This document shows, in pieces, positions 15,901 through 48,508 of a DNA stretch of 64,000 nt. The notes beneath the pieces are model-generated. The model was not told the DNA's origin. It did no database searches and was given only the letters and a program-made list of their open reading frames with translations. The DNA lies in contig CM097886.1 of assembly GCA_044892525.1 (NCBI GenBank), positions 82,026,001 through 82,090,000 on the forward strand, in the 5' to 3' direction. The position numbers were made by a program, and so were the translations under genes. Source of the stretch: Schmidtea polychroa (Eukaryota). The first letter of the stretch is position 1. Each line of letters begins with the position of its first letter.

Positions 15901-17135
15901 TGTATTATGGAGTTTTATTTTAGGTTAATTGTTTAGCCCAGCCACGTATCTAGTAAAATCTGTCTTGAGAGAGCCTGGGTTATATACATGTGTGTAAGGA
16001 TGAGAAGCAAAAAATTTGTTAACTAGTTCACGACGTGTTTTTATTTTAAGTGACGGTATCATAACATTTTCCACCGATGCAGATGGCAACACTGGTGTCG
16101 CATTAAAAAACTAAATGATTCGCAAATTTAACCCAATTAAAGCCATATAAATCCTGACATAATCGCAGAATAGTTACATGTTAAAGAAAATTAAACATGC
16201 ATCATAAAAATAAGTTCGTTTCTTTAAATTATTTTTTAACATCAAATAACTGCTGTTATCGAGTTAGGGTTTTTAACTTAGTTAGACCAAGGCACAACAT
16301 TTGTAAGAAATAATTATGGATTGTCTCAATACAGCTATTTGAACCAAGGCATTGTACTGTAAGTGCTTAGAGGCTGTTGTTTAAATGTTCAAGGTATTTG
16401 CGCTTAGGGTAACTCATTTTAATGTTCTAAAGCTGCTTATAGATTTAGGATAATTCTTTCCTAAAGGTCTTCATGATTATGTTTCTTTGTACCATCTGTG
16501 TAAGCATGGCAACAGTCATGTTGGTAATGTACATTGGCTGAATATCAATAAGCAGTTGAGCTCCACTACTAGAACTACTCATTTCATTTTATGTTTTGTT
16601 GGCGTATGTGGAGAAGCAAAAAAGAATTATACATGCATTTCCATCACACCTATCAAGCATCATGGCTCCGTTATACATTTTCTACACATACTCCAAATGA
16701 TTGATTGCATATTCCCACATATGAGCCCATGGTGATGTTCCATGTTGGTGCTGCTCATACGGGTCGGAAAAAGTTAGCAGGTGAGCCCCTGCCTTAGGAC
16801 TACTCCTAACCCTTTCTCGGTTCGGGTCCACGGTGCCTTAGAAGGACTTACCCACATACATGCGTGTCACTCAGTCTGATCCTGGTCCAAAGGAACGACT
16901 TTCAACTTTAATTACCTTCATTCCGTAGCAGTATCTCATTTATCCTAATTGCACAAACAAATATATGAAAGCTCGACAAAACTGAAATCAAACAGAAAAT
17001 TTTATTGACACTGAAACGATAAAACATCATACTACTAACAGATCAACAGCAGTCAAAAAGATATAACATTAGCAACATTCACAAGATAATTTACAACTCA
17101 ATGAAGAGGAAAATCAAGCTCAATTGTCCGTCACG

Positions 17136-17897
17136 TTAAACAAAGTTATCTCCATCGGCCAGTATCTCATCTATGTCGACCGGTAATCGACTATCCACAA
17201 TGTACTTGATGCCCTCAGCTGGAACGATGCGGAAAACTTCCTTCAAGGGGATTGAATGGGAGGACGTTATCTCTTGGATTTTTGATTTCGCCGCTAATAA
17301 GGACGTCTCGAGTGCTGTCATCGCATCTCGGCGTTTTTGGTTCTTCTCGGCTCGAGTTGGCCGTTTCCGTTTGCGGGTAGTCGGGGGGTTTTCGGTGTCC
17401 GTGGTACCGATTTGTGCTACCAAGATTGGAGCTACGATGGGATCGGTAGATCCACCTGTCTTTGGCTGGTGACTGGACAATACCGGGGCTGGAATGGGCG
17501 GTAGTTGTGAGCCGTGCCCCTGGCAGTGCGAACTGGAAGATGTAGAAGACTGGTGGTGCAGGGGAAAGACATTCATCCCATCCAGAACGGGAAATTCTCG
17601 CACCCGCTTAGCCAATTCTACCTCCGTATATACCTTATGGAGGGCTTCTGATTGCGCTTTGATGGTGAGCCGCTGGCAACGGCTTTCCTCTAGCAGGCTG
17701 TCCCTGCAATGCTCTAATCGGAGAATTTTCTTGCGTTCCTCTTTCATTTGTGGCGGGGAGAACCACGTTCCTTCATAGAGATCAATTCTCTTTTTGAGAG
17801 CCCCGATATATAAATGCAGTTGGGTGATATCCGCGTTCTTGTCCGCACAAGAAAAACACGGGCGGAGTTCTTTGGCGTTGTTGGACGATGTAGCCAT
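17136..17897 (-). CDS. LTR-encoded 253-aa orphan protein (CxxC, coiled coil, basic NLS-like RKRKRP)
   Basis: Intact ATG ORF; ttttctag directly before ATG; AATAAA ~130 nt after the stop (+ strand tttatt 17001-06). Confidence 0.75.
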   Translation of the reverse strand: MATSSNNAKELRPCFSCADKNADITQLHLYIGALKKRIDLYEGTWFSPPQMKEERKKILRLEHCRDSLLEESRCQRLTIKAQSEALHKVYTEVELAKRVREFPVLDGMNVFPLHHQSSTSSSSHCQGHGSQLPPIPAPVLSSHQPKTGGSTDPIVAPILVAQIGTTDTENPPTTRKRKRPTRAEKNQKRRDAMTALETSLLAAKSKIQEITSSHSIPLKEVFRIVPAEGIKYIVDSRLPVDIDEILADGDNFV

Positions 17898-20037
17898 CTA
17901 GAAAATCAATCATTGTTTATATTTACTCGGAAAAACCTCTATCAGTGAGAAAAGAAAAATCAAATTTTTGAGCGTGGCTTTGGAGTTTATCAAGCATACC
18001 ACCCAACGATGACCCACACCCTTCTTCATCCATCTCTATACGCAGTCATTCAGTTGCAAACATTCAAATCTCTTCACCTGATTCGTGTAATTTAAGAAAC
18101 GGAAACGGGGATTCGTACACCAAAATTCTCTCTACACAAACCTCGCCCTTTGGGTTTAATTTCGGATGGGCCATTCCCAGGTAAAACTCGTCTTTTACTT
18201 TATCCCCTTCAACCTTATTCCCCTTAGTATATTTTTATTTAAAAAATTTGCTGATATCATTATGGCAATCCGTCGATGTAGGCGTGCGTAAAATTACAGA
18301 GAAATAATTCACGGCGACGGAATAGATTATTTATGTTTTTATCTCGTGCAAAATTATGGAATTGATCACGTAATCAGTTGAAAATTCTACTCTAAATCTA
18401 CATCTAATTAATTCAAATAACGCGTCGAAATCATCGTCATGGAAAACGTTTACTTGTGATTATGTATTATGATTGACTGTGTAGGTGTGTCATTACTCCT
18501 GGTGGTATCTGTAACTGTATGTTGGCTATCACTGCGAATGATGGTTTATGCTGTTATGAGAAATTATGATATATCGAGTTGTGTAGGGGAAATCCATTCC
18601 TTTACTTCAGCTTATTATCTCACCGTTCTAGAAAAATTCACATCATCATGCCGCTATTACATCACCAAAAATTGTGTATTTACTTTTACACTGCCCTGCG
18701 TAGATTCGACGGTGGTGCGTGTGTATGTGCATGCTCAAGTCGGAATAGTAGTGGTTGCGTAATAGCTTCCTCAAATAAGCAGCCGTAGATGAATTGGAAA
18801 ATCAGATTAATCAATCTGAGTGGGCGACAACTTCATAGATTATTGGGTAAGCTCAACATTATCATCTAATTTCCTTTTACGATATTAATTCAGATCAATG
18901 ACTATCAACTTATCCATTTGACATTTTCTCAGAAAAACTAGCATGTTATCTCTTTCTCCAGGACATTATCAGATATCTCCTGTCGACTAACTCTACGCTG
19001 GCTAATGTAAATCAACTGATTTCGTTATCGTTGGCAACTACTGTCTGCGAGCTCGAAGTAAGAATTTTGATAATTTCCCTGCAAGATGTTTACTTCCCTG
19101 TCAGCGAGAGATTTTTTATCACTGGCAATGGCGACTCACGGACGACAATCAAATCGTAAGAGTACATCGACAATGGATGTAACCGCTAACATCATGACGG
19201 CACAAATTAGACAGAACCTTGCAAACACAGAGCGTCACCGAAAAATCGTTGGATTTACTTGCAATCTATGGTCAACACCGTTCTTTCCTAACTACGTCGA
19301 TCGACCGGCTGAATATCCCAAAAAAAATCTTTCTCCTAACTAGGTGGATTATTATCGTCACGGCCTATCTCGCTCTAAATTGCCTGCATTCGGAATTCAA
19401 ATCATCTCTACATCTACTGGAAATCTCGATTTGACTAAATGAATCGATGGTAAGCTCTATGGACGATCGCGCTTGATGAAGGAAATTTTCACTTATCAAC
19501 TGGATGTTCCACCTACTGAGTTTCTTCACCCCTCACGACACACCCAAGAAGGCATTCATTGCTGCCGCCTCCTTGCACCGTCATGAGGGACCAATCAACT
19601 CGTTTCCATTCAATCAAATCAACAATACAATAATCAAACTGAATGATAGAAAAATGCATAAATAAAATTTACCCGGCGACCGTATCATTTGGACTCCAAG
19701 TATGATGTTGCTCATCCTACGAAATCGAAACCTCATCGTCTCCTTGATGGATATCTAATATGACAAATATCATGCTCTACACATATCACATTCTTCGTTC
19801 AGCATGTTCGTGATTTCTTATGCATACCAACCTTTCCACGGTGGTGTCCTCTACTGCAGTACAATTCCAACTCGTCCACATCATACTGGAAGCTCTCAGA
19901 TGGTACAGTCGCCGGTACCATGAAGAAAGGCAACTTTTCATTTAAATAAATTTATTATATGAAATTGTTTTATTATATTTATGATAATTAACGAAATTAA
20001 ACTAATAACCATAAATAAAACAATTGTCGAGGCATAC

Positions 20038-20115
20038 CTTGAGTTTCGAAAACTGAAGTTAAATCGGTTGAATTTAAAATTTTCCTGAATGGATTTGTAG
20101 TTTGGCCTCTATATA
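20038..20115 (-). promoter_or_regulatory. Candidate TATA box, initiator, ~49-nt leader exon and splice donor (3' LTR copy)
   Basis: Minus strand TATATAG 20115-20109; TCAG with A at 20086, 29 nt from the TATA; AAG|GTATGC donor at 20038/20037. Confidence 0.55.
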
Positions 20116-20192
20116 TTCCTTCCTCGGTTTGGTTTGGAAATCTCTGAACTAGTTCGCTGTAGGCTAATTAAAGGTTCCGAAATCTGTCAAGT

Positions 20193-20263
20193 CTGTAGAA
20201 TATTTTTTAAAAGTGGTCTATAACGAACCAAAGTTTACCTGTAGAATATTTTTTAAAAGTGGT
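20193..20263. repeat. 25-bp direct repeat pair in the putative U3 (period 46 bp)
   Basis: CTGTAGAATATTTTTTAAAAGTGGT at 20193-20217 and 20239-20263; also present in the other LTR. Confidence 0.9.
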
Positions 20264-21042
20264 AATCTACAGATATTTTCCGTTCCTTATATATTATTTT
20301 TCGTCCAATCAGGACACGACTTGTTTGTATTTTTACTATTTATTATTATTTTTATGTTTTTTATTATAATATATTAGATTTTAATGACTTAACTTATTTC
20401 TTATTATTATTTTATTTATTTTCTTATTTTTATTATTTTCCTCCTATTTTTCCTGTGGATTTATTGCTACTTTATTGTAATATAATTTTTTGTTTTAATT
20501 AGACTTAAAGATAGTTTTATTTTTATTTATTTCTTAAATTTCTCGTTTATTTGTTGTCACTTTTTTACTTATTCTATTCTATTTCATCTGCTGGGTCCTA
20601 AATCGCTTTATTTCTAAATCTTAAGGGGTTTATTGGGTTTTATTTAGTTTGTTTTACTTATTCTTATTCTCTTATTGATATTTTATTGTTCCTTTTTGAT
20701 TTATTAGTGAGAATTTGATGGTACTTTATATTTTTATTTTATTTCGTTTATTTTTCAAGGATTACTTTTCTCTTCGCTCCAGTTTTCGAAACTCCGCGTT
20801 TTAGCCCAACAAATCACTCCGGGGCCCGTTAAAATTGCGCCCCGCAATTCACATAATATCATATTTTTAAATCATACCTTCTTTTGGCATAACAACTAAT
20901 TTCACGGTCAACATTCACACAAACATAAAATTAAAATAACTAAATAATACTTTAATTAAACAGATAAAAGGACAAATATAAGCAAGCAGTGGCCACTTTA
21001 GGTGACCGGATTTATACACACAAAGTTTATGAATGGTCGATG

Positions 21043-21678
21043 TCACATGATCTCAAGGTTCGGAATGTTATTACTGTCTTGGTTGGTTGAATTCTGGGTC
21101 GGATGGCTGGTTGAAGTTGTTATCGTGGGGAGCTGGATTGTGACAGGCATTTGGTCGGAAGATAGATTTTGTTGCATTTGGTCGGGTGGGTTTGGTTGTT
21201 GAAAATGTACTGCTCGTTTATGTTTATTTTTCGGTCGTGGGTTCTTTCTTTCGTGTTTCTCGGATAGTGACTGGTTTCTTCTCCATGTTCGATGAATATC
21301 ATACGCTTTCCAGATGACTAGTGCGCAGATGATAAGGGTTTCACTGATGGTAGTATAGAGTAAGACTTGGCTTTCTTTTGCTTCCTTCTTCACGATGATT
21401 TCCTTCAAGGATTGTTGGGTGGTTTGTTCTTGTAAGAGAATTTCGAGCTGTTCGATTTTTTGGGTTTGTAGGTGGAGTTGCATTTGAAGTTTTTGCCAGA
21501 CGGCTTTGTTCCAGTATTGCTTCGGGATGTTGTTGGAGAGCTTTCTTTCGCTTTTCAGTTTGGTTAACGGGTTTTGCTGTTTCTCGGGATTCTCCCAGAG
21601 TGTTGGGATTGGCTGCCACATGGGTATTCCGTTTATCGCTATCATCATTATTGTCACCAGGGTTGCTTCGAACCACAT
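21043..21678 (-). CDS. 211-aa accessory type-I membrane protein, orphan
   Basis: N-terminal hydrophobic MWFEATLVTIMMIAINGI, Q/L-rich coiled coil, TM TLIICALVIW followed by a basic tail; acceptor-like TAG 1-4 nt before ATG. Confidence 0.75.
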   Translation of the reverse strand: MWFEATLVTIMMIAINGIPMWQPIPTLWENPEKQQNPLTKLKSERKLSNNIPKQYWNKAVWQKLQMQLHLQTQKIEQLEILLQEQTTQQSLKEIIVKKEAKESQVLLYTTISETLIICALVIWKAYDIHRTWRRNQSLSEKHERKNPRPKNKHKRAVHFQQPNPPDQMQQNLSSDQMPVTIQLPTITTSTSHPTQNSTNQDSNNIPNLEIM

Positions 21679-21733
21679 ACTACTATACGAAAATTTTTAT
21701 TTACAATTATTTACATTGATCATTCATTTTTAA

Positions 21734-22435
21734 TTATTGCCGGGTTTTCTTTTTACGGGTTTTCTCGGATGTTCTCATCACTCTCGTTTCTGCTTTTATT
21801 ACTCGTTTTCTCAATTCGGGTAATACTTTTAATTGTTTGTCCCTTTCGTCTAACTGTTGCTTTAGGGTTATTATTTTTTCTTTTAGTGTTTTTATTTCTT
21901 GTGTTGCTCTTTCGAGGTTTTTATGGTTCATTATCTGTAGAAAATCATTTTCCCTTTCCCCGTCTTCTTCGTTGTCTATTTCCTGGTATTTGTTGTTCAT
22001 TCGTCTCATTATCTCACATTCTTTCTGTTTTTGGTGTAGTTGGAGTTGTAACTCTTTCAGGCTTTCTTGGTGTTTCCGTGCCTCGGTTTTCCAATAGTCA
22101 CTAATCACTTCGTCGGCCTTTCGACTGGCCCTCTCCTGCCATAATTCTTCCGCGATCTTTTCCCAATTTCTCCCTCGCTTTCTTTGCTCGTGAAGCCATT
22201 CGTTTTCTTCCTCTACTTCTTTCTTTACTCCTTCTAACAAGATATATTCTCTTTTCAATACTTTGATCATTTTTCGATTATCTCTCCACCTTTCTACTAA
22301 TCTTTCGTTTTCCTGTCTCTCTTCTTGTAATTCTTCCTTGATAGTTTTCTTCCTCTCCACTTCATCAACTTCAATTTCCCCCTCTTCTAACTCGATTGTA
22401 GGTGTTATGATGGGTTGTCCGTTTTCAGTGTTCAT
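21734..22435 (-). CDS. 233-aa accessory coiled-coil protein, orphan
   Basis: Intact ATG ORF, E/K/R-rich heptads, same A-rich coding bias as the polyprotein; tattatag|aaaATG. Confidence 0.8.
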   Translation of the reverse strand: MNTENGQPIITPTIELEEGEIEVDEVERKKTIKEELQEERQENERLVERWRDNRKMIKVLKREYILLEGVKKEVEEENEWLHEQRKRGRNWEKIAEELWQERASRKADEVISDYWKTEARKHQESLKELQLQLHQKQKECEIMRRMNNKYQEIDNEEDGERENDFLQIMNHKNLERATQEIKTLKEKIITLKQQLDERDKQLKVLPELRKRVIKAETRVMRTSEKTRKKKTRQ

Positions 22436-22610
22436 TTTCTATAATATATACATAATTAATAATTGCGCTACAGTGCGGCTTATACTTATACATTTATATG
22501 TTATTTTATAATCAGGGTTACAGTCCCTTTCATACTTTTACTGTACCATTAATTTTTTTTGGTTGGGATACAGGTCCCGATTTTTATATTTTTTATCTTT
22601 CCTTTTATCT

Positions 22611-23648
22611 TTATACAAAGGTCTCTTCCTGGCCTACATATCCTTCATCGCTTTCTACTGACGTTTGTAATTGGAGTGCGATGGGATCAAATGGGATGTA
22701 GTACCGGGGAATCTGCGCTCTAAGTTCTTGGACTTCGTCTCTTAGCGCTCTTGACACATTGAGTTCCTCGTCCAATAGGTAGGTTAAATACCTAGTTTCG
22801 TCATCCCGTACCTCTATCTGTTTTTCCAACTCTTCTGCCTTTTCGCCGTTCTCCCATTTCTTGATCTCCTTTTCTAGGTTCTTGATATTTTCGTCGTACA
22901 TCTTTCTCTCGTTTTCCAATTTCTTGTTCTTACCGGCTAGCACTATATTCCTTTGTTCTAGTGCCCCCTTATAGCCGTTATTATCTCTTTCAAGATCTGC
23001 CACCTTGTTTACGAGTTCGACGATTCTACCTGACTGTTGCAGGATCATCTCTTCCATGGCGGTATTCTCCTGTTCCTTTATAGACAGTTTCATGGCTAGA
23101 TGCCTTTCAAATTCCATGGCCTTGGTCTGCCAGGTCTGACTTCGTGCTGCTATTTTCCTGAGCCTTCTTAGCTCTTCTCTCTGATCAAGGTTTTCTTCCC
23201 ATTTCCCTTGATCACTCTCGTGTTCCAACCTCTGCGGCAATTCTCTCATCTCTTTTTGGATTTCCCGATGTTGTTTTTTCCACTTTCTGGCTTCTGCTAA
23301 TAGTTGGCGGGTCTTTCTTTCCTCCTTTTGTTTTTCTATTTCCCGCTTCTTATTCTCATCCGTTAGTCTTTTTCTTGATTCTTGTACTAGCTGCTTCAGG
23401 TAATGCCCGTGCGCCTCTTGCCTGGTATTTTCTAATGCCGACCATTTGGCGGCTCTTTTGCAGGCCTCGGCCTCTGCCCGTAAATTCTGTACTAACCACT
23501 GGAATTGGTGGTTTTCCCATTCTCTCGCTTCTTCGAGGTAATTTCGTGTTTGGTTTGATAATTGTATCATTACTTTGACCCATATTCCCTTATGGATTTT
23601 ATTGACTTTGGTTTCGTGGTTTGGGGCTTCAGTTCCTTCTTGTGTCAT
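22611..23648 (-). CDS. 345-aa accessory coiled-coil protein, orphan
   Basis: Intact ATG ORF of extended heptads; ttatttag|acaaagATG; ends in ETFV. Confidence 0.82.
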   Translation of the reverse strand: MTQEGTEAPNHETKVNKIHKGIWVKVMIQLSNQTRNYLEEAREWENHQFQWLVQNLRAEAEACKRAAKWSALENTRQEAHGHYLKQLVQESRKRLTDENKKREIEKQKEERKTRQLLAEARKWKKQHREIQKEMRELPQRLEHESDQGKWEENLDQREELRRLRKIAARSQTWQTKAMEFERHLAMKLSIKEQENTAMEEMILQQSGRIVELVNKVADLERDNNGYKGALEQRNIVLAGKNKKLENERKMYDENIKNLEKEIKKWENGEKAEELEKQIEVRDDETRYLTYLLDEELNVSRALRDEVQELRAQIPRYYIPFDPIALQLQTSVESDEGYVGQEETFV

Positions 23649-23868
23649 CTTTGTCTAAATAACGATATCATTAACTCAACGTTGTACGCTTATATCTGGT
23701 TTATTATTTATTTATTTTTATAATTCGTTATAGGAGTTGTTTTAGGAGTTTTCCGCTTAAGTTTACCTTTGGTAGATTTGGGGGGAATTTTTCTACACTA
23801 CTATATAATATTTTACTGGATATATACGCCGATATTTACAATTAGTATATACAAAATTATTCGTCTCT

Positions 23869-25258
23869 CTACTCAGTCCTACTCTTCCCGTCTCGTCTCA
23901 CCGCTATTTTTATGTATATAGTGTCGTTTCTCGTCATGTCTTCTACTTTCCGCTGTAGGATGAAATTTGGTGCTCCAGTTGCTGGTCCTTCTTCTTCCAA
24001 GGGCCTTTGGTAACATACGAGGTTTCCCGCTGTATGGAAACTCTGTTCATGAATACTTTGATGGTTCATCATTGCGAGGTCTATTTTTGCTTTGAATGGC
24101 CATTCTATTAACTCGTCGTATGGCCCTTTGCACATCAAGAAGAATACTGAGAAATGCGTTCCGTATGCACTTCCATCCCCATTGGGGTATGTTTTCATTT
24201 TCATTTTATACCCGTTTTTCCATGAGTAGAATGCTGGACTTAGTAATGTTGTATCCTTTTCCATTTCTCGCTCTCTGCATCTTCTCTTTTACTCCCGTTA
24301 TTTTCCATATGTATGGAGCCGTGGGTATTAATTCGTTGAGGTTTAATTCGCTTACTTTTTGATGTAGTTCTTTCACCATAATGTTGCTAGTTTCTACTAG
24401 ATTTGTCTGTATCTTTGTACTTGTTCTCGCCTCTTCAAATGCTTCCTTTTCTTCCAATAGTTCTTTTACCAACGTTTTTAGCGAGACTATTTCTCTTTCT
24501 AAGTTTTCGGTTTTCCTTTCGTTTTCTTGTAATACCGTTGACCATATTTCCGCGTGTGTTGATACGTTTTCTGCTAGATGTTGGGGTAATTCCCCTCGGT
24601 GTAATTGTTTCTGACATCCCCATTTTCCTAACACACACCTTATCTTTTTCCTTTCACACTCTTTTAGATGTTGAGCGAGTTTTATTACTCCGGGTTTATC
24701 GCATTTATTGGGACATTCTCCTCTGAATTCTGCGCACACTTTCTCCTCTTGTATGTTGTGATGTTGCCTGATTAGTTTTTTCCAGGTGTCGGTTTCTCCG
24801 CAATACTCACATTTCTCCAGTCTTTCTTCGCATCGACTTTGATGTTCTGCTTCTTCATTGACTTTAATCTCTTCTTGGCAACGTTTGCATTGACTGATTT
24901 TATACTCACATTGCTCCATATGTTGCCTTACTTCCCATATCACTCCTCGCCAACTACATGGGGTGTTTTTACATCCTAGGTTTGCATTCAACATATCTTT
25001 TACAGCTGCTTTATCTTCGTTTGTATCTCCCAAACTTGTTATCATTGTTTCTTTGCATACTGGGCACCATTGTGGTCCCTTCTTTATTATCTCCTCTACA
25101 CATTCTCTGCACATTCTGCATCCACATCTGGTTTGGTGAGGTTCTCTTAATAAGCTCTTGCATATTCCACACGTTACATGGTTGTGTATTCGAATTGTGG
25201 TGGACTTTCTGACTTGTTCAACAATTTCTTTGAATTCTTCTCGTTGTCGCTTATCCAT
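23869..25258 (-). CDS. TRAF-family homologue (RING, TRAF zinc fingers, coiled coil, MATH) split by a 1-nt frameshift near 24257-24260
   Basis: RING CGICKSLLREPHQTRCGCRMCRECV..CPVCK; CPNKC and GC..HL..H zinc fingers; MATH motifs YIWKI in one frame and LSPAFYS..GYKM..YPNGDG..GTHFSVF..GPYDELIEWPF..YIKI in the next. Removing one A gives a 462-aa TRAF with no introns. Confidence 0.92.
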
Positions 25259-25263
25259 TTCTA

Positions 25264-25298
<35 letters not shown>

Positions 25299-25359
25299 GT
25301 TACTGGTACAGTTTCGTATTTTTATTTACAGTTATTTACATTGCTATTTTAGGTTATAT

Positions 25360-25719
25360 TTATTGGCTGGAAGAGTCGGCCTCTTGTCCGCCTTCTTCCC
25401 TGCTGGTTAACCATTCTGACCAGCCTTCTATCTCCTCTCGCTCCATTTCTTCCGCGATTCTTATTAACTCCTCTTCTTGCACCTGGCTGTATCGTGATAT
25501 TCGGTCTATCTCTCGCTGCATTTGTTCTATTTTTATTCGTTGATCTTCGATTATTCTTACATAACTGAAGCCTTTATTTAAACTTTCGACTAAGCTTCTT
25601 TGTACAGCGAGTCCTTGTTCCTGTAAATTTGAAATCACTTGAGTTAACATTGCACATTGTTGTTTCCACATCTCCTCGGTTGTTGTACTGTGATTTACTT
25701 CCTCGCCTATTCGCTCCAT
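25360..25719 (-). CDS. 119-aa accessory coiled-coil/acidic protein, orphan
   Basis: First ATG at 25719 (the ORF track starts at TTG 25743); amphipathic heptads; lies between the polyprotein stop and TRAF on the same strand. Confidence 0.65.
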   Translation of the reverse strand: MERIGEEVNHSTTTEEMWKQQCAMLTQVISNLQEQGLAVQRSLVESLNKGFSYVRIIEDQRIKIEQMQREIDRISRYSQVQEEELIRIAEEMEREEIEGWSEWLTSREEGGQEADSSSQ

Positions 25720-25887
25720 TCTTAATTTATATATACTTTTCAATCCTTATCTAATTTTATTTTCATATTAATTATCCCCATCATTATATACTATTGATAC
25801 CGCGCTTATATAAAAATATAGAATACTGTTATATAAATAAATATTACCTACTTACTTTTTACAATCTATATACAGTCATAATCCTTT

Positions 25888-26890
25888 CTATATACGTGAG
25901 CTTGGAGGGCGCTGAGCATTCCAGGCCTCCACCCACTGTTCCTGCTTGATATTACTTGGTCGTTTTACATGATGTTGAAAATTTCTTATTCTGGCCATTT
26001 CTAGTTCTCCGCGATGCCGTCTATCTTTGATTATTTTTATTGTCCCCCCCGTTATGATTAAAAAGGCCCCTGTTATTATTATGCCGCTGATCCACATCAT
26101 CTGTTTTACGCTTATAATTTCCGCTTTTTCCTTGCTCGTTAGTGTTGATATTGCTTCTGTGCTTTTTAGATTACCATCTTTGCCATTTCCTTTCATCATT
26201 TCTCGTATTCTTGCTATTTCCTCGTTCATACCTTCCTTTGCCATTTTTTGTATTTTCTCCATCTCCTCCTCGGATACATAATTGTCTTGATGTTTCTCAC
26301 TGTTTTTCTTGCGTTTTCCTTGCTCATCTTTTTCATCATTGATTTTTCTTTTCTTCCCTCTTTTCCCAGGGTATCGTCGACATTCTCTCGCTGTATCTTT
26401 TCTCCAGATGCATATTGTGTATTCTTTTGGAGGTTGTTGCTGTATTACATATTGTAGACAGTCTTCCCCCGGTCTTAATCTTGCAATGCAGACTTTGTGT
26501 TCTTTTCTTGGCTGGAGTTGCGTTATCACTACCTCACCTCCTTTTCCCAGATGTACCTCCTTCCCTTTGACTTTCGTTATTCTCTTTCCGTCTCGATTTC
26601 GATATGCTTCTTGTATTCTTACTTCCGTTATTGGTTCTGCATCTTCATTTTTTAACACTAGTCTCTGATAAGCTCTAGACATACATCTTCCTAATATACA
26701 CCTTTCTTTTAAATCCCATTCTTCTTTTAGATCCCATTGCTGCTCTTGTACTTGTTTTTTCTTTTCTTGTTTTAGTTCTTCCTCTTTGTTGTCCTTATTT
26801 TCCGTTTCTTTGGCTTCTTTTATCGTTCTCATTCCTCCCTGGGCTGTTATCATTTCCACCATTGTTAATACGAGTATCATTATCATCATA
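25888..26890 (-). CDS. Polyprotein C-terminal type-I membrane module
   Basis: Signal-like MMIMILVLTMVEMITAQ, Cys-containing ectodomain, TM MMWISGIIITGAFLIITGGTIKII, basic tail. Confidence 0.65.
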
Positions 26891-35800: not shown

Positions 35801-38800
35801 TCGGTTTCGGTTTCTGTTGTATTATCGATAATCCCCTTGATACTTAGCTTATTTGGCTGCTGATAGCTAGTTGACGGTTGGCTTGTTGTCCATATTTCGG
35901 CTCCTGTCGGCCATCTTACCAGAATTGGTGATCTTTCTCCAGCTCCTTCATCGCTGTCTTCCAATATAATTTCCTCGATTTCCTCGGTTTCATTCGATTT
36001 ACTCGTCACTTTGTTAGGGCTTGGTGTACTCAAGCTACCTTTCGTAGGTTTACCGGATTTGCTCTTCCTTTTAATCGGTTTTCCCAATGTTTCTGCCATT
36101 GTCAATACATTGATCTCCCCCAATCTCATGGGTGTTATTCCGACATCTGCATTATCATCCAACGATTTTCCGAATAGTTGTAGGTGAAATGGAGTTTCGT
36201 ATGCTAATTTCTTTTTTAACTCTCTGATCTTTGTTGTTGGATGTACTTCTGTATCCTCAATGCTTTTGTCGGGATACTTGACTCGGATACGATACCTTTC
36301 CTGGGTATCTTGTGCCCATTCTTGGTTTCTCCATTTCCTAATAATTTGTTCTAGCTGTTCTGGGTACCATTCGTTATATTGTCTGTATTCCTCAATCGCT
36401 TTCGCCATTTCTCTTAGATTGTGGATATTCTCTGATGTCTTTAGGATGATGTTAGCCAATGCTATTACTTGACGTTTTTGATTTTTTGCTCCCGTTGCTA
36501 AGATATCACCTAATTGTTTATATCTTTCCTTCTCTTCTCGTTCTCGAGCTTCCATCGCTTCTTCGCTGTCCATATCGGCATATTCGCGTTCTTTCTTTCT
36601 CATCGCATGAATATGTCTGGTTTCCGTTTCACTTTCCGATGTAACATCCGTTTCGCTTTCGTCGTCCGATGTCGATTCTATTTCGTCCTCTTCGTATTTT
36701 GGAGGTTCATCTTCCTCTTCTTCTGATTCGCTTTCTATCTCACCAATGTCTGTTTCCACGAAAATCCCTTTCCTGATTTCCCATTCTTTGTTTTCGGCAT
36801 TCCACATCCTTTCCCATGGGGTTCGTCTGCAGGATCTAACACTTAGTTTCTTTATTTTTCCTTGAAGCTCTTTTTCTTTTAGCCACTGTTGATGAATTTC
36901 AATTATCTCTACTGATTTTTGATATAGCGTTTTCATCCTGTCTCGTATTTCTTTCTGGTATGTTATATCTCTTGTTCGGAATTCGTCCATGGGCAATATT
37001 CTGATGATTTGATGATTATCCCACATTCCCATTTCGCTTAGCGAGGTGTCGTCTTCGGCCCGTAATATTATTTTATCGTACATCATGACTACATCATCTA
37101 TCATCCCGTCGCTACTCTCGCTTCGTACTTTTTCCGTTATCTCTTGGTTTATCTTGGTTACTAAGTCATCCACCGTACTCTGATTACTCATCTTTATTCG
37201 TCGTTTCTCCTCGTTTGGTAACCATATGGTTATTTCTAATTTCTGCGGTTGCGTTTCTTTTACTCTTCCGTATTTGTGGATCAAATTTATGGTTCTCCAA
37301 TCACTCATCCTGAGCAATTCTGTATCTCGTAATCGGCTCATTAGCTCATGCATGTCTGCAGTTCGTCTTGTTATGAGCAAATCCCAGTTATCCTCAACTT
37401 GTTCTTGGATTTGCTTGATTAATTTATCTAGATTTCGTCGCAAGGTGCATTGTTTTATTTGTTCCAGCTTCAGCTTGATGTTAAAGTCATACTCGGCCTT
37501 GGCGTCTTTAGCCCATTCGTGAATATTTGCTGGTTGCTTCTCTTTATACAATTTCAATATTTGAGTTTCTCCTGGCCAGATCAATGCATCTATTAGGTGC
37601 ATGTCTGGTTTGATTTGTTCTCCTTGATATTGATACAGGTATTCTTTCTTTCTCGAGCTGCCCAAATGTTCTCTTATCCAATCGAAAAGATCGTCTGTAA
37701 CTGCATTTTTTATCCATATTCTCTCGAGTCCTTTACTTGTTCCGATTTTTATTACATAACGTGTTGTCTCCGCTTGTTTCATTTTTTCCATATACTTCTT
37801 TATTATCGCTTTTTCCTCGTTTGGTATTAGATCTTTTTCGTTTCTTTCTAGTTTCATTATCTTTTGTATGAAGCGTCTGTATGGTATGATGTCAATGAAT
37901 TCCTGGTTTCTTACCACCACTGGAAGTATTTCCTTTACTTGTTTTATCGATTCTTCTCTTTCTTTTCTCAATTTCATTTCGATATTCTCGTCTTCGCTTT
38001 CACTTGTTACGTCGCTTTCACTCTCCTCTTCATCTGTTCCGATCTTCTCTCTTAGTTGGTTGATATTTTCATTTAACTGCAATATTTCTCCACCAAGGCT
38101 ACTCACATAATCCTCATCGTCATCTGTTGACAATACCTTCTTTGTCGTCCTCATCATATTAATTCGTAAATTTCTCATTCTTGGTACTTTCTTTAACTTT
38201 TTGTTCTCGAATAACGTTAGCTCCTCTGAGTTCGATTCTCGTATCATATCATGATTTAGATGATTAATCTGTTTTTCATTTTCGTTATTCTCTGCTTCTG
38301 CTTCTGTTTTTGTTTTCTCATTTTCTCTTTCGATTTTATCTTTTATCTTTTTCCAAAATATTTTCTGAATTCTCTGATTTCCTTTCAGCGGTGTTGTTGA
38401 ATTTTCCTTTTTTGCTGCTGTAATTGTTTCCTTCGGTTTCTCTGGTTCGCTCGTAGGTACAACTCTTGGATTTTTACCATAGTTGTAACAATATTGCTCC
38501 TTTATCTCCTTTACCATCCTCATCATATTTATTCGTAGTGGTTGTTCTTGTCGCTGTTGAATTCGCTCTCTTTTTATCCTCTCTTCTTCAGCTTGTAGTC
38601 TTTGCCATTCTTGTGCATGTTGTTGCACTTCATAATTGTTAAGATTCTCGGTGCTTCTCATCATGCGTATATTCTGGGTTTGTTGTGGTACTTGCTCTTG
38701 TCTCGGTCTCATCATTTGTTGCATCATCTGCTTCATTTGTGAAATTTCTTGCATCACATTCATTTGCTTTCCCTCACTAGGATTACTTTGTCGTTGCGGA

Positions 38801-40992: not shown

Positions 40993-41430
40993 GACTGGCT
41001 GGCACTTTTCAACAGCTCAATCTTCTTCATCTCCGAACTGGCTGGACTTTTCACAGCTCAGTTTTAATTTTCCCTGACCGGCTGGACTTTTCAACAGCTC
41101 GGCCTTAATATCTCCGACTGGCTGGACTTTTCACAGCTCAGTTTCAATTTCCCTGACCGGCTGGACTTTTCAACAGCTCGGCCTTAATATCTCCGACTGG
41201 CTGGACTTTTCACAGCTCAGTTTCAATTTCCCTGACCGGCTGGACTTTTCAACAGCTCGACCTTAATATCTCCGACTGGCTGGACTTTTCACAGCTCAGT
41301 TTCAATTTCCCTGACCGGCTGGACTTTTCAACAGCTCGGCCTTAATATCTCCGACTGGCTGGACTTTTCACAGCTCAGTTTCAATTTCCCTGACCGGCTG
41401 GACTTTTCAACAGCTCGGCCTTAATATCTC
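40993..41430. repeat. Tandem array in the 5' leader: 79-bp dimer (39+40) x5 plus one degenerate monomer
   Basis: Core GGCTGGACTTTTCA(A)CAGCTC 11 times; unit starts 41116, 41195, 41274, 41353 are exactly 79 apart. Confidence 0.97.
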
Positions 41431-42012
41431 TAAACTCTGCGTGCTTCCGTTCCTTTTCTGTCTTTATTCTATACTGTCATCTTCCTATTTTTACTTTTAT
41501 TTGTCGACTTAATCTGTACCGCTTTGGAAGGTTTCCCCTTTCCCCCCTTGCTCAAAACGCAAAACGATCGCATTGATCCATTTCTACATTGGTATGGTGA
41601 TCAGCCATACCGCAGAAACTTTTCAATATTCGCGATGGTACCTCGCCTTACATCTCTTACTCGGGGTGATCGGTTGTCCCTTCCCAAATGGTTCCAATAT
41701 CGTACCTCCCGAAGGTGGCTCGGTTTATTCCCCCTTTAACACTATGATGGGACTAGTTCCACTTTAAAAAATCAATTTAAATTTTTAAAATGCCCTTTCT
41801 TCATGGTGAAAATTATAACAACACAAATCAATTTATAACTTCGTATAATGAAATGAATACACAAAAAGGATTTATTAGTTATTTACTCCACATTACAGAT
41901 AATATATGCTATCATTATAAAACATTACCGAATTAATTCAGAACAAAAATAAAAAAATGTTTAATCTAATTGTTAATCATCCAATTTCCTTCACCGAGCG
42001 ACGATCGCGTAC

Positions 42013-42492
42013 CTAACTGAAGTAGATTGTGTGCTTCTCTTTTATTACACATGTGCACATAGAACAACGGATTAAACTGGCGGCGCATTCGTCACAATGG
42101 CTAAGGTGCCCACAAGGTAGAATCAGAATTTTGACAGGTCGCATCCTGCAAATGTTACAAGTTCTCAAGGCCGCTGCTTTCTCTACTATTGATGTTCGTA
42201 TCCGCTGAGACAGAGTTTTGACTTGTTCGCGTATCTTCACATATTCGATGTTCAGAGCGGGGTCGTCGAGACGTTGCTGAAACCATTGGTAATGAATAGA
42301 CAAGTCGGTATCGGTATTTGTTGATCCTAATCTGTCGGTTAGAAAGTTCTGTTTGGATATCAGCGGTGCGTTGTGGCTTTGTTGTTCTAGCAGTTCTATT
42401 TGTTTCAGTTTTTCCCTTAATGTTTTTATTGAATCATTTTCTATTTCGACGAACCGGCTTAGCTGTTGTAGATGTTGTCTAGCTTCTGACAT
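42013..42492 (-). CDS. 159-aa coiled coil plus IAP/Mdm2-type C-terminal RING protein, upstream of gag
   Basis: CNIC..ILILPCGHLSHCDECAASLIRCSMCTCVIKEKHTIYFS-stop; catttag|atATG; AATAAA ~140 nt downstream. Confidence 0.88.
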   Translation of the reverse strand: MSEARQHLQQLSRFVEIENDSIKTLREKLKQIELLEQQSHNAPLISKQNFLTDRLGSTNTDTDLSIHYQWFQQRLDDPALNIEYVKIREQVKTLSQRIRTSIVEKAAALRTCNICRMRPVKILILPCGHLSHCDECAASLIRCSMCTCVIKEKHTIYFS

Positions 42493-42931
42493 ATCTAAAT
42501 GAATGCGTTGTTATTATTTTGTTCCTACTGATATTAAAAATAATATTATTATGTTTGTATTTAATATTCGTTGGCTTTTATGCGTTAGTGTTTTAACTTT
42601 TGTATTTTATTCGATCTTTGAAATTCCCCTTTCATCTTTTTGCTTTAATCACTTACTTTCTTTCGTCCCCCCTTTTATTTTAACCCGTTAAAATTAATCC
42701 CAATAACCAATTCCCGTTTTCTTTTCTCATCATACTTCATCACATTCATTCCAACTCATTTAGGTTCGTTTCATTCACCACATGCTCTATTTCAAACTCA
42801 GACAGTTCGTATCATTTCATTGTACTATCATTCGTTTCAGCCCCGATTCCATTTTTATCATTATTAATTAAATTGTTAATCTAACACATCATAACACAAA
42901 ATTAGACAATCAAACAAATCAATATATATAT

Positions 42932-42949
42932 ATCCCGGCTGAGCCCCCA
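42932..42949 (-). promoter_or_regulatory. Primer-binding site, tRNA-Pro type
   Basis: Minus strand TGGGGGCTCAGCCGGGAT, 16/18 identical to the classical tRNA-Pro PBS TGGGGGCTCGTCCGGGAT, 7 nt from the 5' LTR. Confidence 0.85.
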
Positions 42950-43495
42950 AAAATCATGTTGGCGTATGTGGAGAAGGAAAAAAGAATTATACATGCATTT
43001 CCATCACACCTATCAAGCATCATGGCTCCGTTATACATTTTCTACACATACTCCAAATGATTGATTGCATATTCCCACATATGAGCCCATGGTGATGTTC
43101 CATGTTGGTGCTGCTCATACGGGTCGGAAAAAGTTAGCAGGTGAGCCCCTGCCTTAGGACTACTCCTAACCCTTTCTCGGTTCGGGTCCACGGTGCCTTA
43201 GAAGGACTTACCCACATACATGCGTGTCACTCAGTCTGATCCTGGTCCAAAGGAACGACTTTCAACTTTAATTACCTTCATTCCGTAGCAGTATCTCATT
43301 TATCCTAATTGCACAAACAAATATATGAAAGCTCGACAAAACTGAAATCAAACAGAAAATTTTATTGACACTGAAACGATAAAACATCATACTACTAACA
43401 GATCAACAGCAGTCAAAAAGATATAACATTAGCAACATTCACAAGATAATTTACAACTCAATGAAGAGGAAAATCAAGCTCAATTGTCCGTCACG

Positions 43496-44256
43496 TTAAA
43501 CAAAGTTATCTCCATCGGCCAGTATCTCATCTATGTCGACCGGTAATCGACTATCCACAATGTACTTGATGCCCTCAGCTGGAACGATGCGGAAAACTTC
43601 CTTCAAGGGGATTGAATGGGAGGACGTTATCTCTTGGATTTTTGATTTCGCCGCTAATAAGGACGTCTCGAGTGCTGTCATCGCATCTCGGCGTTTTTGG
43701 TTCTTCTCGGCTCGAGTTGGCCGTTTCCGTTTGCGGGTAGTCGGGGGGTTTTCGGTGTCCGTGGTACCGATTTGTGCTACCAAGATTGGAGCTACGATGG
43801 GATCGGTAGATCCACCTGTCTTTGGCTGGTGACTGGACAATACCGGGGCTGGAATGGGCGGTAGTTGTGAGCCGTGCCCCTGGCAGTGCGAACTGGAAGA
43901 TGTAGAAGACTGGTGGTGCAGGGGAAAGACATTCATCCCATCCAGAACGGGAAATTCTCGCACCCGCTTAGCCAATTCTACCTCCGTATATACCTTATGG
44001 AGGGCTTCTGATTGCGCTTTGATGGTGAGCCGCTGGCAACGGCTTTCCTCTAGCAGGCTGTCCCTGCAATGCTCTAATCGGAGAATTTTCTTGGTTCCTC
44101 TTTCATTTGTGGCGGGGAGAACCACGTTCCTTCATAGAGATCAATTCTCTTTTTGAGAGCCCCGATATATAAATGCAGTTGGGTGATATCCGCGTTCTTG
44201 TCCGCACAAGAAAAACACGGGCGGAGTTCTTTGGCGTTGTTGGACGATGTAGCCAT
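43496..44256 (-). pseudogene. Frameshifted copy of the LTR-encoded ORF
   Basis: ttgcgttcc (17731-) is ttggttcc (44091-) here, splitting the ORF into 60-aa and 209-aa pieces. Confidence 0.85.
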
Positions 44257-46396
44257 CTAGAAAATCAATCATTGTTTATATTTACTCGGAAAAACCTCTA
44301 TCAGTGAGAAAAGAAAAATCAAATTTTTGAGCGTGGCTTTGGAGTTTATCAAGCATACCACCCAACGATGACCCACACCCTTCTTCATCCATCTCTATAC
44401 GCAGTCATTCAGTTGCAAACATTCAAATCTCTTCACCTGATTCGTGTAATTTAAGAAACGGAAACGGGGATTCGTACACCAAAATTCTCTCTACACAAAC
44501 CTCGCCCTTTGGGTTTAATTTCGGATGGGCCATTCCCAGGTAAAACTCGTCTTTTACTTTATCCCCTTCAACCTTATTCCCCTTAGTATATTTTTATTTA
44601 AAAAATTTGCTGATATCATTATGGCAATCCGTCGATGTAGGCGTGCGTAAAATTACAGAGAAATAATTCACGGCGACGGAATAGATTATTTATGTTTTTA
44701 TCTCGTGCAAAATTATGGAATTGATCACGTAATCAGTTGAAAATTCTACTCTAAATCTACATCTAATTAATTCAAATAACGCGTCGAAATCATCGTCATG
44801 GAAAACGTTTACTTGTGATTATGTATTATGATTGACTGTGTAGGTGTGTCATTACTCCTGGTGGTATCTGTAACTGTATGTTGGCTATCACTGCGAATGA
44901 TGGTTTATGCTGTTATGAGAAATTATGATATATCGAGTTGTGTAGGGGAAATCCATTCCTTTACTTCAGCTTATTATCTCACCGTTCTAGAAAAATTCAC
45001 ATCATCATGCCGCTATTACATCACCAAAAATTGTGTATTTACTTTTACACTGCCCTGCGTAGATTCGACGGTGGTGCGTGTGTATGTGCATGCTCAAGTC
45101 GGAATAGTAGTGGTTGCGTAATAGCTTCCTCAAATAAGCAGCCGTAGATGAATTGGAAAATCAGATTAATCAATCTGAGTGGGCGACAACTTCATAGATT
45201 ATTGGGTAAGCTCAACATTATCATCTAATTTCCTTTTACGATATTAATTCAGATCAATGACTATCAACTTATCCATTTGACATTTTCTCAGAAAAACTAG
45301 CATGTTATCTCTTTCTCCAGGACATTATCAGATATCTCCTGTCGACTAACTCTACGCTGGCTAATGTAAATCAACTGATTTCGTTATCGTTGGCAACTAC
45401 TGTCTGCGAGCTCGAAGTAAGAATTTTGATAATTTCCCTGCAAGATGTTTACTTCCCTGTCAGCGAGAGATTTTTTATCACTGGCAATGGCGACTCACGG
45501 ACGACAATCAAATCGTAAGAGTACATCGACAATGGATGTAACCGCTAACATCATGACGGCACAAATTAGACAGAACCTTGCAAACACAGAGCGTCACCGA
45601 AAAATCGTTGGATTTACTTGCAATCTATGGTCAACACCGTTCTTTCCTAACTACGTCGATCGACCGGCTGAATATCCCAAAAAAAATCTTTCTCCTAACT
45701 AGGTGGATTATTATCGTCACGGCCTATCTCGCTCTAAATTGCCTGCATTCGGAATTCAAATCATCTCTACATCTACTGGAAATCTCGATTTGACTAAATG
45801 AATCGATGGTAAGCTCTATGGACGATCGCGCTTGATGAAGGAAATTTTCACTTATCAACTGGATGTTCCACCTACTGAGTTTCTTCACCCCTCACGACAC
45901 ACCCAAGAAGGCATTCATTGCTGCCGCCTCCTTGCACCGTCATGAGGGACCAATCAACTCGTTTCCATTCAATCAAATCAACAATACAATAATCAAACTG
46001 AATGATAGAAAAATGCATAAATAAAATTTACCCGGCGACCGTATCATTTGGACTCCAAGTATGATGTTGCTCATCCTACGAAATCGAAACCTCATCGTCT
46101 CCTTGATGGATATCTAATATGACAAATATCATGCTCTACACATATCACATTCTTCGTTCAGCATGTTCGTGATTTCTTATGCATACCAACCTTTCCACGG
46201 TGGTGTCCTCTACTGCAGTACAATTCCAACTCGTCCACATCATACTGGAAGCTCTCAGATGGTACAGTCGCCGGTACCATGAAGAAAGGCAACTTTTCAT
46301 TTAAATAAATTTATTATATGAAATTGTTTTATTATATTTATGATAATTAACGAAATTAAACTAATAACCATAAATAAAACAATTGTCGAGGCATAC

Positions 46397-46474
46397 CTTG
46401 AGTTTCGAAAACTGAAGTTAAATCGGTTGAATTTAAAATTTTCCTGAATGGATTTGTAGTTTGGCCTCTATATA
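46397..46474 (-). promoter_or_regulatory. Candidate element promoter, leader exon and splice donor (5' LTR)
   Basis: TATATAG 46474-68, TCA(+1 at 46445)G, AAG|GTATGC at 46397/96. Confidence 0.55.
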
Positions 46475-48508
46475 TTCCTTCCTCGGTTTGGTTTGGAAAT
46501 CTCTGAACTAGTTCGCTGTAGGCTAATTAAAGGTTCCGAAATCTGTCAAGTCTGTAGAATATTTTTTAAAAGTGGTCTATAACGAACCAAAGTTTACCTG
46601 TAGAATATTTTTTAAAAGTGGTAATCTACAGATATTTTCCGTTCCTTATATATTATTTTTCGTCCAATCAGGACACGACTTGTTTGTATTTTTACTATTT
46701 ATTATTATTTTTATGTTTTTTATTATAATATATTAGATTTTAATGACTTAACTTATTTCTTATTATTATTTTATTTATTTTCTTATTTTTATTATTTTCC
46801 TCCTATTTTTCCTGTGGATTTATTGCTACTTTATTGTAATATAATTTTTTGTTTTAATTAGACTTAAAGATAGTTTTATTTTTATTTATTTCTTAAATTT
46901 CTCGTTTATTTGTTGTCAATTTTTTACTTATTCTATTCTATTTCATCTGCTGGGTCCTAAATCGCTTTATTTCTAAATCTTAAGGGGTTTATTGGGTTTT
47001 ATTTAGTTTGTTTTACTTATTCTTATTCTCTTATTGATATTTTATTGTTCCTTTTTGATTTATTAGTGAGAATTTGATGGTACTTTATATTTTTATTTTA
47101 TTTCGTTTATTTTTCAAGGATTACTTTTCTCTTCGCTCCAGTTTTCGAAACTCCGCGTTTTAGCCCAACAGTTTTAAGAGTGCCGATAGAAGCCTCTATG
47201 TCACTTCATTATCTATCCTTTTCTTAGATTTCTCCTTGTTCATTTAATTATCGTCCTCATTACTTGATGCCATTCAATTTTACAGAAAGTTTGCAGAGGG
47301 ATCCATACTTATTTCCCGTTTTTAAAGTTTTGTTCTAGATTTTCTACAATAATTAATGTTAAATTCAAAGATTTCTATAGGGATCTATCCTTATTTCTCA
47401 TTTTGACTTATGCGGAACCTAAATACTAATTTAACCTAGACAGTCTTAATGCTTTGAGATAATTGCTAACCTACGCCTCAGAATCCCCAACACTCGTGAC
47501 ACAGCCATTCTGGGTGTTTTTGTTTCCTCTGCTGAGTCGACCTATGTGACCAAAACCAATTTTCTACCAGGCGGTATATCTGGCTGTACTGTCCGGGTCT
47601 CGGGTGAACACACTCGTCTTTGCTTGCTCCATCCGGATTCCAAACCATTCTATCTAGGCTTCGAATAGACCTCGTTGAGCTACCCTATTCACACTGTTTG
47701 GGTACATCTACCTGCGAACCAGATGGTGACCTTTGTTATGATAATCCTCAAAGTCTCGAGGAACTTCACTTTTAAATTCGTTCTCTTGATTTAGGAGGCT
47801 AACCTAAATTTTTTAGGAGGTCTAAAAAACTTTCATAAATTTGAGCTGTCCCTGAACCATGATTAAGTTTCATAGAAATGAGAAAAAAATTAAATAAATA
47901 ATCATTCGTAGTTTTTTATATTATTAATTATTTTTTTAATTTATTTTCCTAGTTCGCAGATTTTTCGAATGCGTTGTTTCTCTCTTAACTATGCTGGTGA
48001 TTCCAACTTCTTGTGTTTAACATTTTTAATATACGCGTTTCATTTATCCTCAATCTGTTGTGTGAATGATGTTGTTTAAATGAGTCGGAAATTCAACATG
48101 GACACTGCATCAAGTCTAATTAAAATCTATGATTATACATTAAATAATACAAAGTAAAGTACACAACACATTGAGGATCAAAAAACGCGTATAATAATAA
48201 TGATAAACGCAAGAAGTTACAATTATAAACATAGTTAAGAGGGAAACAACGCATTCGAAAAAGATGTCAACTCAAAAAAAAGAGAATAAATAAAAAAATG
48301 AATTAGTAAAATCAAGAATAAAAAATGATAATTAGTCAAGTTTACATATGAAGGACAATAATGTAATTAATGGCTCATAATGAGGAGCTATGACAAAAAT
48401 GCAGAAATTAAGAGAGAAAATATTTAAAATAATTATATATGATTACGGTAAAACATCAATAAAAATCAGTAAAATAACGAAATAACAAGAAAATGGTATT
48501 ATTATATA

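Follow-up and report, generated by a model that had tools for sequence, protein, structure and literature searches.

The locus analysed here raises the question of what kind of long terminal repeat (LTR) retroelement spans more than 30 kb with a virus-like set of genes, and of how it copies itself and expresses those genes. The window, a stretch of 64,000 nucleotides from Schmidtea polychroa (GenBank assembly GCA_044892525.1, contig CM097886.1, positions 82,026,001 to 82,090,000), carries the element at 16597-47170 on its minus strand (30,574 bp); coordinates below are those of the window, and the LTRs, genes, domains and motifs placed within the element are on the minus strand. The element is probably best explained as a Ty3/gypsy copy of the Burro clade, with an in-frame envelope gene (env) that separates gag from pol; its family likely continues to transpose and likely forms enveloped particles. 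A sequence-only reading had proposed a giant element with virus-like organisation and Burro kinship, and both proposals stand, given the gene inventory, the gag-env-pol order and a reverse transcriptase (RT)-RNase H tree that groups the element with a Burro1-like family. That reading did not describe the viral fusion glycoprotein encoded between gag and the protease, nor the cis-signals discussed below. Giant size and virus-like organisation are not new, because the Burro outline had already been published; the cis-signals are the more unusual part.

The sequence-only reading had also claimed an element of about 30.6 kb with 4.2-kb LTRs, precise termini, a 4-bp target-site duplication (TSD) and three LTR differences noticed by eye, and had called it very young. 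Direct-repeat alignment bears out each of these points. The 5' LTR (42957..47170, 4,214 bp) and the 3' LTR (16597..20811, 4,215 bp) have the TG...CA termini of Ty3/gypsy elements and are 99.93% identical, differing by 2 substitutions and one 1-base indel, and the same four letters stand on either side of the element (16593..16596 and 47171..47174). The window copy is likely to have been inserted very recently. An 18-nt primer-binding site (PBS) at 42932..42949, 7 nt past the 5' LTR, is perfectly complementary to the sequence formed by the 3' end of a host tRNA-Pro(TGG) gene and the added CCA, and its 15-mer has 1,093 matches in the genome.

The window element belongs to a family, here called A, and two related giant families, B (known from three fetched copies) and C (from one), are present in the same genome. 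Searching with a 1-kb piece of pol gave at least 40 scored places among 1,045 first-look candidates, namely the window itself and 39 further places with 98-99%. The genome-wide count proposed in the sequence-only reading gives 76 sites for a family-specific junction motif and 291 matches for a 15-mer from the LTR end. Fifteen copies, chosen among the best matches for both pol and the accessory gene TRAF, were examined. All 15 have a 4-bp TSD and 14 have the PBS (the exception has a microsatellite at the PBS and a deletion in one LTR); the long open reading frame (ORF1) is open in 10 of the 15, and the two LTRs are identical in 6 of the 14 pairs measured, the others differing by 1-3 substitutions. 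Judged from these copies, family A is likely still transposing. Two of the 15 have a different LTR interior (77-80% identity in the alignable parts) and a 73%-identical LTR gene, with a body about as near to the window copy as that of the others, which likely reflects an LTR swap by recombination. Evenly spaced LTR-end or PBS matches were also seen in sequence G000:C1 near 72.65-72.70 Mb and 39.42-39.47 Mb, with 26.4-kb and 15.8-kb steps, suggesting head-to-tail tandem elements that share LTRs.

Young repeats are hard to assemble, and the near-identical LTRs, or the whole element, might be an artefact of collapsed repeats, with the two frameshifts described below as base errors. This is very improbable. 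The TSD copies match; the LTRs of the window copy agree with each other even though it differs from copies of its own LTR type by about 3% in the body (96.6-97.0% identity) and by 5-6% in the LTR, and it is therefore not a collapse of the sampled copies; and the fifteen other copies have the same map and their own TSDs.

The ORF1 frame occupies 25888..40314 (14,427 bp; 4,808 codons from stop to stop, 4,623 from the first ATG at 39759). The sequence-only reading had reported an intact 14.4-kb ORF with complete protease, RT, RNase H and integrase motifs, and so it proved. Pol (29185..32568) comprises a protease, RT, RNase H and an integrase with an SH3-like tail, all four passing or nearly passing Pfam cut-offs, and its catalytic residues are in place: DTG, YIDD, D-E-D, HHCC, and D,D(35)E at aa 3437/3497/3533. 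Ahead of it lie Gag (38845..39759; retrotrans_gag in Pfam and three CCHC knuckles by pattern), three ubiquitin-like domains (36085..37767; individually 37540-37767, 36985-37251 and 36085-36303), a Bcl-2-like domain with a matched BH2 region (35005..35562) and Env (33169..34983). The ubiquitin-like domains match ubiquitin/ISG15 chains as a profile, with a single-domain E of 6e-6, and are weak as lone sequences. Downstream of Pol there is an ankyrin-repeat region (27055..28818; Ank_2, E 3.3e-15), followed by a C-terminal membrane module (25891..26889) with a signal-like hydrophobic segment, a predicted beta-sandwich, a transmembrane segment and a short tail.

Relative to family C, the ratio of nonsynonymous to synonymous substitution rates (dN/dS) is 0.01-0.10 across the ORF1 domains where dS is measurable, RNase H being saturated; it is 0.10 for the C-terminal module and 0.03 for a segment of about 95 aa between protease and RT that has no Pfam match, at the place where the published Burro has a dUTPase-like segment, which Pfam did not detect in the window element. 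Conservation extends upstream of the first ATG (39760-40314), where about 100 codons are 72% identical to family C in amino acids, with proportions of nonsynonymous and synonymous differences (pN and pS) of 0.15 and 0.44. An acceptor-like site near 40,266, upstream of the ATG, is common to the window element and family C, and the start of ORF1 may be provided by a spliced exon or by a codon other than ATG. A four-residue hydrophobic motif recurs at aa 362, 518, 549, 595, 718, 1401, 2304, 2570, 3732 and 4027, several times at domain borders; the pattern was chosen by eye and has 10 matches against 1.6 in shuffles. Hydrophobic segments at aa 2364, 4476 and 4744, together with the signal-like stretch of Env, suggest two membrane proteins within one chain.

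Env is predicted to consist of a putative internal signal, a fusion-glycoprotein ectodomain and a transmembrane segment. Its match to PF24664 is strong (E 5.2e-72, aa 2054-2393); phmmer found no relevant solved structure for the ectodomain, which is a candidate for the class III (gB-type) fold. The protein might be kept for a purely intracellular role, for instance to hold Gag and Pol at a common membrane, in a retrotransposon that makes no infectious particle. A single polyprotein would yield Gag, Env and Pol at 1:1:1, which budding retroviruses do not do. There is also only one N-glycosylation sequon in aa 1800-2400, and the excerpts of the literature drawn on for such elements hold no particle data. 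We nevertheless regard an intracellular role as unlikely, since the ectodomain is strongly constrained (dN/dS 0.06 against family C), has 16 cysteines in aa 1780-2520 and matches a fusion glycoprotein, and since flatworm GAG-ENV-POL elements are treated as carrying intact gB-type fusogens in the excerpted text of PMC13524379.

The placement within Ty3/gypsy rests on pol. In an RT-RNase H tree of 32 rows, families A, B and C form a clade with 100/100 support inside a clade with 97/98 support that also takes in smaller gag-env-pol families and unnamed env-before-pol proteins. A phylogeny of the kind suggested in the sequence-only reading joins the window copy with family B at 100/100, as far as a midpoint-rooted tree without a named Burro reference among its rows can go; the Burro grouping comes through the gene inventory of family B. 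This kinship in itself points to a planarian host. That family is about 36 kb long, with MATH inside ORF1 and a BIR-RING gene, which is the published Burro1 inventory, and its gene order is that of the window element plus the BIR-RING gene, after TRAF and before a coiled-coil gene. Family C, at 81% DNA identity, has exactly the gene map of the window element. A genome search for BIR scored at least 150 matches of 309 candidates, mostly in 392-393-codon frames, and one for env gave 2,580 first-look candidates. Protein searches were less informative about named relatives: ORF1 aa 1850-3600 gave 3 matches, none a named planarian relative, and env gave 1 unnamed relative, while the best single-copy pol relatives are unnamed proteins at 47-52% identity, seven of them with env before RT. 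The 3' LTR of one family-B copy is interrupted by a gypsy element of 5.3 kb that is unrelated to it.

The Burro outline in the available part of PMC6431247 is an element of more than 30 kb with a polyprotein of about 4,900-5,100 aa (gag, SUMO-like, Bcl-2-like, env, protease-RT-RNase H-integrase, ankyrin) and cargo that includes MATH, BIR and Smc-like genes; these elements were suggested there to be proviruses. The suspicion that the family was known in outline, with Bcl-2-like and MATH cargo, was therefore correct. With Burro1/GYPSM1 and Burro-2 to -4 of Schmidtea mediterranea the window element shares a length above 30 kb, multi-kb LTRs, a polyprotein of about 4,800 aa, tandem repeats, gag with three CCHC knuckles, ubiquitin/SUMO-like and Bcl-2-like domains, an in-frame env before pol, ankyrin repeats, and RING, MATH and coiled-coil cargo. 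The further suspicion, that its gene set might not be the known one, also finds support: unlike Burro1, the window element has no BIR gene and no MATH in ORF1 (no BIR domain was found in any window ORF scanned and no MATH inside ORF1 by Pfam), and its only MATH domain is that of a complete, separate TRAF gene downstream. A Burro-like element in Dugesia tigrina is similar in having ORF1 without MATH and MATH on an accessory ORF (PMC6431247, in part). Four Burro families are named in the same excerpt, and there is some chance, though not a large one, that the window element is an orthologue of Burro-2, -3 or -4 with its map and signals already published. The Dugesia tigrina element, however, carries the MATH ORF upstream and two knuckles in gag, whereas here TRAF is downstream and the knuckles number three. 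The window element is a BIR-less variant lineage of Burro; its structure is real and its kind is known.

A further question is which sequence primes plus-strand synthesis. Reverse transcription of LTR elements is regarded as almost always requiring a polypurine tract (PPT). Directly before the 3' LTR there is none: within the last 20 nt no purine run exceeds 4 in family A or 3 in family B, compared with a longest run of 11 in a smaller relative. Its place, at 20812..20849, is taken by a 7-bp inverted repeat around a 3-nt centre, together with a U-tract and a GC palindrome-like block. This sequence is the same in 15 of 15 sampled family A copies and is conserved in B and C. The inverted repeat has 1,190 sites in the genome, a number near that of the PBS 15-mer (1,093), against 0 for a control, and in 6 of 6 unfiltered matches it is located before a 3' LTR. 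The smaller gag-env-pol families (about 15-18 kb, 0.6-1.1-kb LTRs, a ~3,320-aa ORF, env preceded by a Bcl-2-like segment) have a normal PPT and a related upstream hairpin. In the alignment with them, the hairpin and the U-tract have counterparts at the same position, and the GC block falls opposite the G-run of their PPT; the tract therefore appears to have been replaced rather than misplaced. Pairing of this pre-LTR element with tRNA-Pro or the PBS was considered by eye only and dropped. A PPT is a usual, not a defining, feature of Ty3/gypsy elements, and its loss does not touch the assignment by pol.

The same cis-element recurs on an otherwise different element. A gag-only element in G000:C1 at about 5,728,800-5,744,400 (15.6 kb, 1.6-kb LTRs 99.9% identical) encodes a 760-aa gag at 31% identity and has the PBS and the pre-LTR element of the window copy, the latter being the only blastn match between the two (53 nt, 94%). 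No pol was found in it, and it is likely a non-autonomous satellite. At several places in the genome PBS and palindrome are 11-13 kb apart, which suggests that this satellite is numerous.

The remaining genes raise the question of how they are expressed. Upstream of ORF1 is a 159-aa RING gene (42013..42492) with a coiled coil, a C-terminal RING (zf-C3HC4_3, E 4.8e-8) and no BIR, and with orthologues in families B and C. Downstream are a 119-aa gene (25360..25719), TRAF (23869..25258; RING, zinc fingers, coiled coil, MATH), a 345-aa gene (22611..23648), a 233-aa gene (21734..22435) and a 211-aa gene (21043..21678); those of 119, 345 and 233 aa are coiled-coil-like, and the 211-aa product, the least conserved, has an N-terminal hydrophobic segment and one transmembrane segment. 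A 253-aa gene lies in the LTR, open in the 3' LTR (17136..17897) and frameshifted in the 5' LTR (43496..44256). The seven extra same-strand ORFs of the sequence-only reading are recovered if TRAF and the LTR gene are each counted once; TRAF is frameshifted in the window copy and split over two frames (25258-24206 and 24264-23869). TRAF is a single frame of 462-472 codons in 15 of 15 copies of one set and 9 of 11 of another (one copy is in both), and an unbroken natural copy matches human TRAF3/TRAF2 at E about 1e-28.

These genes appear to be maintained. All seven have pN below pS, measured against family C or, for the LTR gene, against the alternative-LTR copy. For TRAF dN/dS is 0.07; for the other genes compared with family C, pN is 0.17-0.49 and pS 0.68-0.86, mostly too saturated for a ratio. 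Judged from these differences, the accessory cargo is under selection, and the LTR gene (pN 0.17, pS 0.88) is under purifying selection. The LTR gene has no known family in Pfam and no usable match in the ESM Atlas; a variant LTR gene distantly related to it (26%, E 9e-6) was seen among family-B sequences. Within the smaller 17.7-kb relatives, no match to the accessory genes of the window element was seen. Outside one small gag-env-pol element, on the opposite strand, lies a TRAF-like sequence (32% over MATH), a candidate host or mobilised TRAF.

Two signals bracket most of the accessory genes. At 15 of 22 accessory starts in families A, B and C, the first ATG follows the end of a YAG at a distance of 0-6 nt, as against 436 of 2,191 other ATGs (pooled Fisher p 1.5e-6) and 35 of 235 ATGs in AT-rich context; in the window alone the count is 6 of 7. 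Since 9 of these 15 do not share the frame of the ATG (offset 1 or 2), they cannot simply be the stop codon that comes before it. After most internal stops comes UGUAHAUA, which we take to be a Pumilio/PUF element. The window element has 8 sense sites and 1 antisense, and 7 of the 8 stand 14-30 nt after a stop: one 14 nt past the ORF1 stop (25867..25874), and pairs after the 119-aa gene (25323..25340), TRAF (23833..23853) and the 233-aa gene (21698..21715). Across the three families the motif is found within 60 nt of the stop in 13 of the 16 ORFs that are followed by another ORF, with 22 sites in total against a shuffle mean of 1.3 and a maximum of 5 in 1,000. A forkhead DNA site was considered less likely, since the sites show a strand bias and can have either A or T at position 5. 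The best reading of both signals is that of separate spliced mRNAs under PUF-type control; alternatives for the post-stop motif are the shielding of long 3' untranslated regions from decay, or 3'-end formation.

The block might instead be an operon, in which host spliced-leader (SL) trans-splicing cuts the pre-mRNA and 3' ends form in the spacers at the UGUA pairs. The spacers of 55-220 nt are below the 300-nt threshold used for flatworm operons, SL trans-splicing is reported for planarians (both in the excerpt of PMC12582326), and the acceptors lie at the ATGs with no shared strong cis donor. However, flatworm leaders end in AUG (same excerpt), which 9 of the 15 acceptors would place out of frame. 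AATAAA, rejected as a spacer signal, is not enriched there, and internal cleavage would compete with full-length genomic RNA. An operon is accordingly possible yet doubtful, and separately spliced mRNAs remain preferred. For their route, cis-splicing from a shared leader has about an even chance, SL trans-splicing is distinctly less likely, and internal promoters are less likely again.

In the mechanism that we suggest, a single RNA would give a single polyprotein. The internal signal would thread Env into the endoplasmic reticulum and would be left as a membrane anchor of the preceding Bcl-2-like domain; Pol would be cytoplasmic behind the Env tail, likely released by the protease of the element at the recurring hydrophobic motif, and the second signal and transmembrane segment would produce a further surface protein. 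Minus-strand DNA would be primed by tRNA-Pro, and plus-strand DNA would likely begin at the GC block that replaces the G-run of the ancestral PPT, aided by the conserved upstream palindrome. The accessory genes would likely be expressed as separate spliced mRNAs, with acceptors just before their ATGs, and likely controlled by a PUF/Pumilio-type protein through the sites shortly after their stops. The TRAF, RING, ubiquitin-like, Bcl-2-like and ankyrin parts would likely damp host cell-death and immune signalling. A bolder version has Burro elements as infectious invertebrate retroviruses with PPT-less priming via the structured GC element, a captured cell-death and ubiquitin cassette in the form of an SL-cut, Pumilio-gated operon, and a gag-only satellite on the same cis-element; taken as a whole, it is improbable.

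Several points weigh against the reading favoured here, all of which is drawn from DNA and predicted proteins. The palindrome stem never varies in the giant families, so that a hairpin and a protein site on DNA are indistinguishable. Seven of the 22 accessory starts have no nearby YAG, and the leaders of A, B and C have no strong splice donor in common. UGUAHAUA is missing within 60 nt of 3 of the 16 internal stops and is absent after the RING, 211-aa and LTR genes, and pairs of UGUA also fit 3'-end processing (CFIm). The pooled p-values are overstated, because orthologous starts and stops of the three families are not independent. The fifteen copies, picked as best matches, favour young intact elements. 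Among the proteins, the signal-like stretch of Env near aa 1778-1803 was picked by eye and is below the hydrophobicity cut-off. The Bcl-2-like assignment is weak: the profile matches Bcl-xL at E 0.0017 and 5 of 6 members match PF00452 (best 1.2e-5), the window copy alone has 0.026, below the cut-off, and phmmer with the single sequence matched no relevant solved structure. The C-terminal beta-sandwich is likewise weakly assigned, from a low-confidence model (pLDDT 58) with many FN3/Ig rows in VIA (Z 5.5-6.8), no Foldseek match at E <=0.001, a profile with no PDB sequence match and no usable ESM Atlas match. Finally, identity between the 211-aa gene and its family C counterpart is no more than 25%, with dN/dS 0.46.

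Other features of the locus are less unusual. The leader contains a 79-bp tandem array (40993..41430, 5.5 copies), with a 73-bp-period relative in family C. GC content is mostly 35-41% inside the element and 17-36% in the flanks, and the interior has a strong strand bias. The flanks contain pieces of two host genes, EMC2 TPR (10172-10552, plus strand, Pfam E 4e-27) and C2orf69 (57182-57892, minus strand, E 7e-30), and of the 37 flank frames scanned, 35 were without a Pfam match; the insertion site looks intergenic. An inverted repeat adjoining the element (47904-48319; 137-nt arms, 74% complementary) is likely a decayed miniature inverted-repeat transposable element. Elsewhere in the genome, tRNA-Pro genes form long tandem arrays with a 475-bp period (G000:C1 near 130.9 and 133.1 Mb); a tRNA-Pro T-arm pattern has 2,277 matches at <=1 mismatch, some of which may be primer sites of elements.

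Lentiviruses, foamy viruses and other complex retroviruses have spliced accessory genes, host-modulating proteins and a gene inside the LTR, and the window element can be likened to them in its working mode. By contrast, it has a gypsy-type pol, env inside the polyprotein and no PPT, and it is outside Retroviridae. Flatworm GAG-ENV-POL errantiviruses with an env of the herpes simplex virus (HSV)/gB type have been catalogued, and these platyhelminth elements have the same gene order, the start of env resembling by eye that of S. mediterranea errantivirus 1; two S. mediterranea errantivirus rows span about 14.8 kb, as against 30,574 bp here (PMC13524379, in part). Plant Ogre elements are alike in their large LTRs and extra ORFs; their internal region is much shorter, and the available part of PMC6431247 describes no env or apoptosis cargo for them. 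Its Burro section makes no mention of a PPT replacement, the acceptor/UGUAHAUA pattern, an LTR gene or a C-terminal membrane module. PPT loss, acceptors or PUF sites in Burro elements did not turn up in the literature searched; the primary papers of Grohme et al. 2018 and Lee et al. 2026, which are outside that search, may show some.

The missing PPT and the acceptor and post-stop signals, present also in the Burro1-like family B, are testable new points. With about 1,190 junction sites in the genome and many LTR pairs that are identical, this clade manages without a PPT, and PPT-bearing relatives in the same genome allow a direct comparison on priming. The units of acceptor, ATG, stop and UGUAHAUA provide a concrete model for the expression of five genes behind a 14-kb frame. 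BURRO1 is under PIWI control (PMC8532177, in part), and its B-IAP is reported, second-hand in an excerpt citing Lee et al. 2026, to protect stem cells (PMC13465017); family A, which multiplies without the BIR-RING gene, is a natural control for this reported mutualism. A TRAF expansion has also been reported for planarians (PMC6109357, in part), and TRAF and MATH genes carried by such elements may inflate it.

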